Program-made: the position numbers and the translations under genes
The notes under the pieces: generated by a model
What the model saw: the letters and a program-made list of their open reading frames with translations, nothing else
What the model was told of the DNA's origin: nothing
The model's database searches: none
Assembly (NCBI GenBank): GCA_964035545.1
Contig: OZ037771.1
Location: 4,537,628 to 4,601,627 of the forward strand
Reading direction: 5' to 3'
Length of the DNA stretch: 64,000 nt
Source: Bugula neritina
Taxonomy: Eukaryota; Animalia; Bryozoa
Shown here: in pieces, positions 9,801-13,700 of the stretch
How the letters are laid out: each line of letters begins with the position of its first letter
Position numbering within the stretch: the first letter of the stretch is position 1

Positions 9801-10738
9801 ATGGCGTATGGTCGGCTGCGTATTGGGTGCGTATTGGGGGTTGTTTCCACCACGTGCTGTACTATATCAGTACGTCCAAGGTCAGTGACTCCTTCTCCAA
9901 TGATATCTTGGAACTCGTCCACCAGCCCTCGCAGCTTCTGAAACTGGTGTAGGTCCAATGTGGTGTCCTCCAGTTTCAGGCTTGAGCTAGGTTTGGATAG
10001 AGTCTTCGATTTTTCTTTTGGGGAGTTGACCTTGAGTAGTTCCAGATTTTCTTCCACCTGTTCCACGTTACCCACGATCGTGTCTTCTGGAATAGTTATG
10101 GGAGTCTTAGTGCAATTCATTATTGGCACCCAAATGCGTCTCTTGACTACCCTGTCAATTGATTTTCCCACCATTACCTTTTGTGGTAACTTGTCGCCTT
10201 CAAAATAGCAGGTGGCACCGTCCAAGGATGGACTTGTGATGGTGGCCACCACTGCCATCTCTGACAGAGGCGGTATGTCCACGCTATACGCCGTCCGTGC
10301 TACGTTGTTTATGGCTTCCGGTCCCATGGGTATCTTCCGTCGGTTGAAACCCAATGTGCACCTCTGGAAATCGTAGGTGACTTCTCCCAGCTTTGCTAGG
10401 AAATCAGTCCCTAGAATGACGTCGTGAGTAATTGCATTGGCCACAAAGAGTGAGTGTTCTACTCTTGTGTCCTTGCCTATTGTAATCACCACGTCCGATT
10501 TCCCGAGAATGTCTAAAGAGCTGTTGGTAACACCCCTTGCCTTTATCTTGTGTGGTTGTAGTGCCAATCCTAAGTTGGCAGCGATATTTGAGTTCACAAT
10601 GCTTATAGATGCGCCAGCGTCTGCTAACGCGGTACACCTCTTGCCGTTTACCTCTGCCCTTATTGTTGTTGTCCGACAGGTGTGACTATCTAGGATTCCC
10701 AATACTTGGGCAGCGGTTTTCGGCAATGGCGTGGTTAG
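6872..10738 (-). CDS. pol: Pol polyprotein (aspartic protease, reverse transcriptase, RNase H, integrase); no ATG at its start, in frame with ORF1
   Basis: PR ALADAGAS; RT WRFCVDYRKLN, MPQG, YLDD; RNase H TDASATAIGAVL/ELFAIV/TDN; IN HHCC (HDSITAMH..CHSC) and DDE (MDFLGP, SDRAKSF, NGQVE); acidic tail ending in basic RYGLRRRPKQKR. Confidence 0.96.
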   Translation of the reverse strand, partial: LTTPLPKTAAQVLGILDSHTCRTTTIRAEVNGKRCTALADAGASISIVNSNIAANLGLALQPHKIKARGVTNSSLDILGKSDVVITIGKDTRVEHSLFVANAITHDVILGTDFLAKLGEVTYDFQRCTLGFNRRKIPMGPEAINNVARTAYSVDIPPLSEMAVVATITSPSLDGATCYFEGDKLPQKVMVGKSIDRVVKRRIWVPIMNCTKTPITIPEDTIVGNVEQVEENLELLKVNSPKEKSKTLSKPSSSLKLEDTTLDLHQFQKLRGLVDEFQDIIGEGVTDLGRTDIVQHVVETTPNTHPIRSRPYAIPVGIRSEVKAQLDEMQEAGLITPSAGNWTSPVVLVKKKDGRWRFCVDYRKLNSVTIKQSMAISSIENAVEIMHNKKYFSSIDLCSGFFQVALHESSQEKSGFITPFGCYEFKVMPQGMSGSPATFTRLALAIMADLISEGSSCVYLDDWLMASTTFESHLQLLRTVFSRLRYAGLKFRLSKSQLCQKEILYLGHILSSKGIAVAPHNTEKIKNFPTPRNKTEVKRLLGLFGYYRSFIKNFARIATPIIKLTSKDAEFVWSAECQRASEELRTRITTAPILVFPDIKSPFILTTDASATAIGAVLSQLRDNKEHPISFYSRTLTAAERKWDACQQELFAIVCAVKHYRQYLMNVKFRLITDNAACTYIIKKPDLSPRLARWAIQLADYDFEVIHQAGKQNVVADALSRAEILAVESCPIDEQTRNQQKKDYFLGPILLYLEKGKFPEDASKAKANQIVADSKQFKIIDGLVYRNYQDKALLAIPSSQRHLLMYAMHDSITAMHPGVTKTMLRLKQHYWFPKMHQAVEKYISECHSCQQRKNPKVQTRVPLATRIATEPFHTLSMDFLGPFVQSADGMKYVLVFTDHFTKWCEMICTADQSAATVARVYVEQIFCKFGAASVLLSDRAKSFMSSVMVEVNKLLKTDSKFSVPYSPASNGQVEIYNKTIANMLSHFVDPGTHRDWDRYIPFCQLAHNSSVHTTTTTSPSMLLFCREMRMPYELTKPRPPVVEDDAPYVTKLHNRMQEVWDTARQLIGKGKERQKRYYDKKARPTDLRVGDIVLYYNKRAYKNKTAKLIKRWQGMYIIKHITDTTAAIQLFNEPDQAPFRVHLNLLKRYKGPLVRGPTSELSIELDSPAAHDSGSEEVETSAPESDNFHSDRPSSEEDCRETDCQETDCQPTTEIETHKDEHARHNGTDTDIAYSNGNREGTSIQEPQNNNTEEAERIEPPPPPTRNNKRYGLRRRPKQKREAQFTYRL

Positions 10739-13700
10739 TCATTGTGAAGACTCTTGCCTGGCTTGCTTGGTCCAAGAAGGCCAAGCGATGTCATCCGCCT
10801 CGGTCATATCCTCGAGCGCGGGATATAACCTTGCGGATGGGGTGTTTTGGTCAACAGTAGAAATGGGGGTTGTACTTTCTATTTGGGAATGAATGGGGGA
10901 TATTAAGGAATGTAATTCCGTGGCTGTCGTAGTTTCTTCTGCTGTTGGCTGGTGTGTTGTAATTTGTTCTACGTCTACAGCATCTACTACGATTCTGCCA
11001 CGCCTTTTGCAGATGTACTTGATGCATAGATGGTAATATAGTTTCTTGGAGATGAAGACGATTGAAGCAATCGTCACGATGAGGTTTGCCAGCATGGTCC
11101 ACAACTCATATACTGAGGCCACATGACCTCCGAACAAGAAGGAGAAATATGAGTTACCCAGTATGCCTTCCTGGGTCTCTATTCTATTCTTGTCCAAAGT
11201 ATGGTGTGGGGAGCTGACAACCCCAACGGCTTTCAACACCTGCGCTTGGCGGTTGAGTGTTGAAAGGATAGCATTTAAGGAGTGGTGATGACTAAAATCA
11301 GCCCAATTTAGTCTATGTGCGCGACTGAAGATATTTTCGTGTAATTCCAAGGGAGTAGCTCCTAATTTGATGTTTGGCAAGGATAGAATTGTAGTGTTTG
11401 GGGCCAGTTTTAGAGATTCGTTCCATGAATATAGGTAAATAATACCGTCCAATTTCACAGGAACTTCCTCTCTGTGAGTGCAGTCTACGTTGTATGAGTC
11501 AGGGTGTATTATGTTGTCTACAGGGTCCAGATATCCAATGGATTCGAGACCAGCTATAGATATTTGTATCGGCAAGTAGTTGGTGCAATTATTGTGTTTC
11601 ATTTTCAGTAGTTGGTAAGAGGTTCTTTCCAACTCGGTGCAGGGGTACACCTCTAAGTAGCCAGGGCCGGCTTTCGCGACCACGTTACTCAATTGCAACA
11701 TGTGTCTTGCTGCTGTTGTGGGGTGTCGTTCAAGTAGGAGAGTGATGAGGTTAATGGTTTGGGCAGTGTTGTGACACGAATAGTAGTATGAAGTCCAGAA
11801 TAGTTTTTGTGCGGTGGTGATTTGTTCTAACGCTAGAGCTTGCGCTATTGCGTTTATTGTAGACGCATATTGGCCTACGATCTGATATGTGGCTGTGACG
11901 TTGTTACGAATGGTAACATTGTGGAGTGGCGTTATGAACCTCAACATCAGCCCTTGGTCCGACATCGACGTGTTCTTGCCGTGGCAGTCCTTCGTCGAGT
12001 TGATTCCATATCGGGCGAACGTCAAGGCCATCGAGTGGTCGCTACTAACGAAGTGGTTGTCGAAGAAGGTGCCTTCCTCCATGTACCACTCCGTATGTCT
12101 GCAGTGGGTCTGCTTCCGTGGTTCCCATATGAGGATGGAACCGTCGTCCAATTTGCAGCTTCCTTCGTCATATTTGCAATGACGAACGTCGCCTGCAGTG
12201 GACTCGAATTCCTTATCCTCATGCCTTTTGTACACGGTCGCTCTAACTATGCTGCACTGATTCTTCGAGAAGAATTGCTTCTTGCAGCAGTGCTTGTACA
12301 CTGCTTCAACCTTGTTGCGCGTAGTGAAGACACCATCTCCGCCCTTAAGCTCACCCGCGTCACAGTGTTTTGAGGCAACCATGTCGATGCACTCTCCCCG
12401 CGTGATAGGCCGGTTCTCTATGTGAGCATTGCGGATTTTCACATCGGTGAAGAGAGACACTAACGTGGTGACCACAGATTTGAACTTCTTGCATTGGTAT
12501 GCTGGTGACTCCCATTCTATTGTGTTGGGTTTGTATACCATGATTTTTGTCTGTTGGGGCTGTCGCGTGGGGTCAGTCTTGTCATGTCCGGGGCAGGTGT
12601 AGTTAGTGTTCAGTCGGAACAAGTGGGGTTGGTCAGTATGGTGTGAGCCGCATACCATGGGGTTTTTTGCTTCTACCGGGGTCGCTCCACAGCCAAGGAA
12701 ACAGCTTAGCAAGCATAGCATTGCTAGTTGTACCGCATCCATGACTGAGAGTTTTCTGCCACCTCTTCTACTTTTGGCCTTCGGTCCTTTTGCCTTGGGA
12801 GTTAGTTCTACGGCGTTGACGTGTTCCTGGCCTGGATCTTGATTTAGGAACTGGAATGCAAACTCGTCAGGACCAAGGTCGCTGACGACGTTTACATTAG
12901 AGCATTTGCTCCCATAATGCCGGTTCCCGCAAGACTTGCAGGGCCAAGGATTTTGTCCACGCCCATTGCCGTAGTTCTGACCTGTGCGATTGTTATTGTG
13001 CCTGTGTGAAGATTGGTGGTTGTATGACCCTCTTTGTTGGTTAAAAGGGGCTTGGTGTTGGTTAAAAGGGGCCTGATGTTGGTTGTGGGTGCCTTGGTTA
13101 TAGTAGCGCTGTGGTTGGTTGTAACCACCTCTTCTGTTGCCTCGGTTACCACCGCGTCCTCTACCACGGTATCGGTTGGGCTGGTAGTTATTGCTCCTGT
13201 AACTTTTCTCCTCTTGCTCCTTGGATCTTATTGACTGAGCTTTTATAAGCTCAGCCAGACCGTCTATTTGCTTTTGCAGAGGAGCTATGAGTTCTGCTTG
13301 GCTCCGGGTGTAATTAATTTCCGCGACTATTTCTGACTCTATGAAATTTATTTTTTGAGTCTTGAGTGCTCCATCTACCGCTTCAAGCTTCTTTGCTTCC
13401 TCCAAGGTCTGTTGCAGGGTGAGTTCACCCTTCAGAAGGATATCCCTCTGATGGGCTTCGTTCAGCCCTGCAATAAATACGTTCGTCAACACTTTGTCTC
13501 TATATTCCTCCGGCATATCCAGGAATGCCGACTGGCCTTGAGAGACTACTTCTGTGAAGAATTCTCCAACAGTTTTCTTCCCCTGTGACAGTTTCCAGAG
13601 GCTCTTCCCTAGCAGTGGGTTGCTTCTCTGGAACATCGTAGCCAGTTTGGGTTTAAGTGCAGTGTAGCTGGTGGCACAGCCGGGCGCCTGTTTCACTACC

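Follow-up and report, generated by a model that had tools for sequence, protein, structure and literature searches.

Probable stop-codon readthrough at the env-pol junction of a gag-env-pol errantivirus in the bryozoan Bugula neritina

How a long terminal repeat (LTR) retrotransposon that carries env between gag and pol makes its Pol is the question raised by a 64,000-nucleotide (nt) stretch of the Bugula neritina genome (assembly GCA_964035545.1, contig OZ037771.1, positions 4,537,628 to 4,601,627; hereafter the window). The minus strand of this window holds a 12.3-kb element in which Gag and Env share one open reading frame (ORF1) and Pol occupies a second (ORF2), the two being separated by one stop codon in the same frame. 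From sequence comparison, we contend that programmed readthrough of this env-pol stop is very probably the best explanation of Pol expression.

The minus-strand junction reads TCA CAA TGA CTA ACC ACG CCA TTG CCG, with its core CAA-TGA-CTA at 10736..10744. A 1220-codon open frame closes at the TGA (10741-10739) and a 1288-codon frame opens directly behind it in the same frame, with no other stop in the 7.5 kb of this copy's frame, which confirms the claim of a first-pass annotation that a single in-frame stop precedes pol. That annotation had also held that no in-frame ATG lies ahead of the protease motif, and indeed the first Pol methionine (Met) is codon 138 and the catalytic aspartate (Asp) of the protease is codon 40; its estimate of about 2500 amino acids (aa) for Gag-Env-Pol agrees with the 2499 aa that readthrough from the ATG at 14371 would yield. 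Its use of a TTG (10726-10724) as the landmark of the pol ORF has to be abandoned, as this is the fifth codon after the stop and is without meaning, one of the two sister copies having TCG there.

According to the consulted parts of a review (PMC13517186), type II readthrough sites consist of UGA followed by CUA or CGG and occur in alphaviruses together with an extended 3' stem-loop, the Sindbis virus site being UGA CUA ACC; a stimulatory structure in the RNA on the 3' side is required under some conditions. Type I sites, as in tobacco mosaic virus (TMV), read UAG CAR YYA and are independent of structure; they function in mammals as well as in plants and yeast, and in the latter two with any of the three stop codons. 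CAA precedes the stop in both TMV and Venezuelan equine encephalitis virus (VEEV). In the same parts, animal viruses are credited with types II and III only and with no type I. The junction in the window, an in-frame UGA followed by CUA between two conserved ORFs, has the type II context and is identical to the Sindbis virus site over UGA CUA ACC, and a long stem-loop is predicted at a similar distance; unlike in alphaviruses and TMV, the signal sits here in a retroelement, at the env-pol border.

Within the genome of B. neritina, a DNA search with the element returned six matches at five places. All three copies of this family (family A) that retain the junction read CAA TGA CTA, and the junction is deleted in two further copies. 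A second family (family B), found by protease search and identical to the window element at 38% (protease) and 39% (C-terminal half of Env), has CTG CAA TGA CTA GAA in frame in 8/8 copies, a count that includes two pairs identical in the compared sequence, which may be duplications. In its copies L011-L016 and L057, the Gag-Env frame is still long (about 1350 codons in five of them), whereas pol is broken after about 170 codons or cut off. Other families, among 50 of 150 listed protease loci, mostly have a continuous gag-pol frame or a frameshift-like overlap.

Metagenome contigs were then scanned with an alignment of Env, which gave 16 loci, and the env-pol junction is readable with a stop in 11 of them, belonging to five families. 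In each of the 11, the context is of type I or type II. The sequence is CAA TGA CTA TAT in two families (L100-L102), GAA TAG CAA CTA in family E (L103), CAA TGA CAA TCA in family F (L104-L107) and CAA TGA CAA CCA in family G (L108-L110), so families E, F and G carry the type I context of a stop followed by CAR-YYA, which is not that of the window copy. Behind the stop, the pol frame extends over about 1290-1310 codons or stays open to the contig end in 10 of these 11 loci, and L110 has a frameshift in the Env tail. Because the 11 loci stem from two accession series, the sampling of metagenomes is narrow. The five others comprise one continuous locus (L111), one that is cut (L112), two that break ahead of the tail (L114, L115) and a decayed one (L113) with TGA-GCA just ahead of the protease motif. 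Among viral contigs, no relatives were present in 43 pattern matches.

Seven families, with protease identities of 34-55% (84% in one pair), could thus be compared. The stop is kept in all seven, and A at -2 and -1, T at +1, C at +4 and A at +6 are fixed, whereas nine positions farther upstream agree in only three to five families and the Env tails barely align. Had the stop been a chance mutation, the first-pass annotation reasoned, related copies would carry a sense codon, but wherever the junction can be read in a close relative, a stop is present in frame and its context is one of those known to be leaky; the conservation of TGA-CTA across diverged members that it considered holds for the stop, with CUA or CAR-YYA as the context. 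The first in-frame Met lies downstream of the catalytic Asp in six families and six codons ahead of it in the seventh. As a background, of 7340 positions in frame in pol, 1.7% are followed by CTA or CARYYA, against the junctions of 7/7 families, which share ancestry and are not seven independent trials, and UGA-CUA is found at 0/6 terminal stops of pol. The residue before the stop is also biased, with a C-terminal glutamine (Gln) in nine of ten close Gag-Env homologues and in 15 of 18 of a wider, hand-picked set, compared with 4.3% Gln across the preceding 100 residues.

The junction thus keeps its frame yet swaps UGA-CUA with CAR-YYA and UGA with UAG, as would be expected under selection for leaky termination. 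Such swapping of contexts is not predicted by splicing, editing or reinitiation.

Some deleted copies of the element bear on the first of these alternatives. Two LTR-flanked copies, L098 (G000:C3:2674000-2683999) and L099 (G000:C6:970000-979999), are 99.4% and 98.5% identical to the window element over the 5' part and have a common internal deletion (window 11754-6533) that removed the C-terminal half of Env and the entire pol, its ends not being GT-AG; they likely represent a non-autonomous subfamily mobilised in trans. A rearranged copy, L004 (G000:C2:3975535-3978914), is missing almost precisely the pol gene, the gap running from the junction to where pol ends, and its Env tail adjoins the 3' untranslated region, a joint that is also seen in sequencing run X2. 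A third env-bearing family (L071/L092, G000:C4:12450000-12459999), decayed and with 22% Env identity, has integrase sequence directly after env.

Among the other explanations, the one that survives best, at a low probability, is that Pol comes from a spliced RNA, for instance one that joins gag to pol and skips env. Such a splice would bring back the usual Gag-Pol packaging route, and Drosophila copia sets its gag/pol ratio via splicing (PMC2194720, parts consulted). The first-pass annotation had pointed to TGACTAAC as a possible branch point with an AG about 30 nt downstream; both are present in the window copy, the AG at 10706-10705 as part of an AAG, but the motif is not conserved even within the family, as CTAAC is private to the window copy and both sister copies have CTAGC, in which the branch A is gone. 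The candidate acceptor has 11/19 pyrimidines upstream and no clear pyrimidine tract, no combination of branch point and AG is common to the other six families, and a branch point with pyrimidine tract and YAG acceptor is conserved neither in the sister copies nor in those families. With CTAAC confined to the window and no branch point and AG shared, the splice alternative loses its basis in the sequence. Splicing, moreover, needs no agreement of frame between stop and pol, and it leaves the swap to CAR-YYA unexplained. No GT-AG joint occurs in the retrotransposed deletion copies L098, L099 and L004 or among four joints in run X2; this run, whose kind is unrecorded and which looks like DNA, covers the element evenly, gave many diverged contigs and has no joint into 10706.

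Somewhat less probable still is a separate start of Pol, be it from an internal promoter, an internal ribosome entry site, a near-cognate start codon or reinitiation at an AUG that overlaps the stop (CA-AUG-A). This AUG is seen in six of the seven families, and the Tca2 junction is reported to hold a minor promoter (PMC2194720, same parts), yet the AUG is out of frame, opens just 4-58 codons of unconserved sequence and is absent in family E, and AA or CAA likewise precedes the stop at the TMV and VEEV readthrough sites (PMC13517186). Near-cognate starts are unconserved too, with none in the first 35 codons of families B, E and G, and the TTG of the window copy is replaced by TCG in one copy as mentioned.

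Other recoding of the stop ranks lower again and is very unlikely. Both UGA and UAG can be edited from A to I into a codon read as tryptophan, and the stop region is partly paired in longer folds, but an A that follows a G is a poor ADAR site. Selenocysteine insertion is excluded because the stop of family E is UAG, and neither process accounts for the fixed CUA or CAR-YYA context. A nonsense origin of the stop, in a formerly continuous ORF such as the continuous Env-protease frame of distant relatives, has next to no probability and is refuted by the conservation of the stop across copies and in 7/7 families (protease identity 34-55%, with 84% in a single pair), while the window copy itself has identical LTRs and no further stop in 7.5 kb. 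Frameshifting at the junction was also rejected, there being no slippery heptamer nearby and no long overlapping frame.

Several observations nevertheless weigh against programmed readthrough. In the window copy, the 100-150 nt past the stop fold as an extended stem-loop that begins 6 nt downstream (z score -4.3 to -5.1; predicted at 10634..10732, about 100 nt), but the fold is weaker in the sister copies (-2.7 to -3.6 and -1.5 to -2.1), z is about -2 in two of the other families and near 0 in four, so that conservation of a 3' structure across families is not supported, covariation is found in 0/34 pairs (three copies), and 3/75 windows of 100 nt across the element score as low or lower. The modelled stem-loop is a possible family-specific helper. 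Apart from structure, one of the six terminal stops of pol used as control (family E) likewise has CAR-YYA after it, with just 10 codons beyond the stop, and the family B copies in this genome carry broken pol genes. An RNA run, X1 (5% of words), gave two short contigs, neither on the junction. The gag-UGA-pol junction of Tca2 alone may not direct readthrough and may need distant signals, according to the consulted parts of PMC2194720, and the predicted membrane topology of Env and Pol is drawn solely from hydropathy.

As to the element that carries the junction, all of its parts lie on the minus strand between two identical LTRs of 639 nt with TG...CA ends, the 5' LTR at 15446..16084 and the 3' LTR at 3768..4406, with a 4-bp target-site duplication (TAGC). 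The identity of the LTRs indicates that the insertion is young. A primer-binding-site-like TGGTGGAGGTACC (15431..15443) lies 2 nt past the 5' LTR, and a short polypurine tract (4407..4416) adjoins the 3' LTR. ORF1 (10742..14371) encodes a Gag-Env polyprotein of 1210 aa, counted from the first ATG, whose last residue is Gln (CAA). It contains a Gag capsid-like region (13457..13741; PF03732, E 2e-4, a weak match just under the cut-off), a hydrophobic stretch at the Gag/Env border (12677..12751, residues 551-569) predicted from hydropathy to act as an internal signal sequence, an Env ectodomain (11114..12661) that is rich in cysteine and carries N-glycosylation sequons, and a predicted transmembrane helix (11039..11113, residues 1097-1121; hydropathy) with about 100 aa of tail behind it. 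The ectodomain is assigned to the class III fusogen fold, like that of herpesvirus glycoprotein B (gB), by a structure model (predicted local distance difference test 63) that matches herpesvirus gB structures (Foldseek E 1e-18, template modelling score 0.3-0.4) and by the Pfam matches of its homologues (PF24664 or PF00606). ORF2 (6872..10738; 1288 codons) has no Met ahead of the protease active site and encodes Pol in the order protease, reverse transcriptase, RNase H and integrase, which together with the LTRs, the duplication, the primer-binding-like site and the purine tract places the element among the Ty3/gypsy LTR retrotransposons. Long non-coding stretches occupy about 2.5 kb past pol (4407-6871) and about 1.1 kb ahead of gag (14372-15445). 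Minus-strand windows of 100 nt in the Env tail (10900-11100) and gag (13200-13500) fold comparably to, or more stably than, the region behind the stop (z -5.8, -4.4 and -4.3).

With gag, then env, then pol between LTRs and a class III Env with signal and transmembrane segments, we read the window element as a GAG-ENV-POL gB-type errantivirus (Ty3/gypsy, Metaviridae), a class with an Env of the herpes simplex virus gB type that Chary and Hayashi (2026, PMC13524379, parts consulted) describe from Bryozoa, Nematoda and Platyhelminthes. Ty3/gypsy Pol, gB-type Env, env ahead of pol and LTRs are shared with the elements described there, which are treated as having three ORFs, whereas Gag-Env is one ORF here. 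Two rows of the supplement of that paper (Bryozoa_C2b, Cpal_4 and Cpal_5), compared by eye, resemble the window Env motif by motif, and the nearest named protein cluster contains B. neritina entries. The main text, in the parts consulted, holds nothing on readthrough, frameshifting, splicing, a polyprotein or a fused or single ORF, and the examined parts of the paper describe neither a fusion of Gag with Env nor a stop at the env-pol border with its context.

Under programmed readthrough, most ribosomes would terminate at the UGA and release Gag-Env, with Gag and Env at 1:1, and a few per cent would insert an amino acid at UGA-CUA and produce a rare Gag-Env-Pol of about 2500 aa, perhaps assisted by the family-specific 3' stem-loop. 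Judging from hydropathy, Gag would remain cytosolic, the internal signal would direct the Env ectodomain into the endoplasmic reticulum, and the transmembrane helix would bring the Env tail back, so that Pol would be cytosolic and attached to the tail. It can be speculated that signal peptidase may cut Gag from Env; if the two were separated, Pol would reach particles via the Env tail and not via Gag, and its own protease would then free it.

Some distant relatives have no stop at this border. In L111, as in P0081, P0095 and P0128, the Env tail continues into the protease, and three proteins called from raw contigs (P0130, P0172 and P0188) each comprise Gag, Env and Pol in one chain; the fused product can therefore be regarded as a natural form. 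Two aspartic protease domains are seen in the distant Gag-Env-Pol relatives P0130, P0177 and P0097, and SPRY domains follow Env in P0141. In a quick tree of Env, 22 rows that end after the tail group together (Shimodaira-Hasegawa-like approximate likelihood ratio test 98), beside three stop-less rows; families with CUA lie among those with CAR-YYA, an arrangement that requires two or more changes, and family B (CUA) falls with two CAR-YYA families. A single gain of the stop follows only weakly from this tree, because it is a quick one, midpoint-rooted, with long branches and no clade test. Tentatively, and at slightly less than an even chance, we envisage a clade of enveloped animal retroelements in which a single unspliced RNA yields every protein, as Gag-Env and, rarely, an Env-Pol readthrough product, with enzymes tethered to the membrane and packaged by the Env tail instead of Gag, and with a stop that was gained once from a continuous Gag-Env-Pol and later flipped between UGA-CUA and the TMV-type CAR-YYA.

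Two env-less gypsy families of the same genome have gag and pol in frame across AGC TGA CTA TAT (L022/L096 in the G000:C8:8844135 region, L076, L078 and L116-L120). They are 61% identical to each other and about 30% to the window Pol, TGA CTA is kept in 5/5 pattern matches of one of them, and by their motifs they are presumably Mag-like. In this host, the same TGA CTA signal serves a gag-pol border of an unrelated clade.

Elsewhere in the window, 42146-47784 and 50288-57639 form a tandem duplication of about 8-10 kb with 76-94% identity, within which lie two large ORFs of 468 and 451 codons, both rich in Ser/Thr and with no convincing Pfam match. A 386-nt inverted repeat (93%) flanks AT-rich microsatellites at 21707-23346 and is possibly a foldback element or one resembling a miniature inverted-repeat transposable element.

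In-frame stops are known from other retroelements, as in gag-UAG-pol of murine leukaemia virus, gag-UGA-pol of Tca2 and pol-stop-env of SIRE1 (PMC2194720, parts consulted). They resemble the present case in that a stop in frame governs how much of the downstream protein is made, but there the stop follows gag or pol, whereas here it follows a membrane-anchored Env, and Pol would join the Env tail. Nematodes, too, are described as having non-canonical metaviruses in which env precedes pol (Sacco et al., 2022, as cited in the consulted parts of PMC13524379). UniRef entries from Caenorhabditis tropicalis and Globodera rostochiensis likewise have Env and then Pol, in one annotated protein, but with no stop at the border, and they may be gene models with introns. 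PMC5408684 has no passage on stop codons or readthrough. Among titles and abstract openings of the open literature, a scope that does not cover subscription papers, neither env-pol readthrough nor a type I context in a likely animal retroelement was found.

Neither the gene order nor the readthrough signals are new in themselves, and it is their combination at the env-pol border that was not found in the literature as consulted. The usual Gag-Pol fusion is interrupted when env sits between the two genes, a problem that these elements apparently solve with a leaky stop after the Env tail. Readthrough at this position would supply the expression logic that is lacking for the recently described gag-env-pol errantiviruses, and it predicts an unusual particle assembly in which Pol is carried by Env. 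The families compared offer a natural series, with the same junction carrying now one and now the other of two textbook readthrough signals. Three of them have the type I context, against its absence from animal viruses in the consulted parts of the review (PMC13517186), and if they are indeed read through, type I readthrough would extend to animal retroelements.

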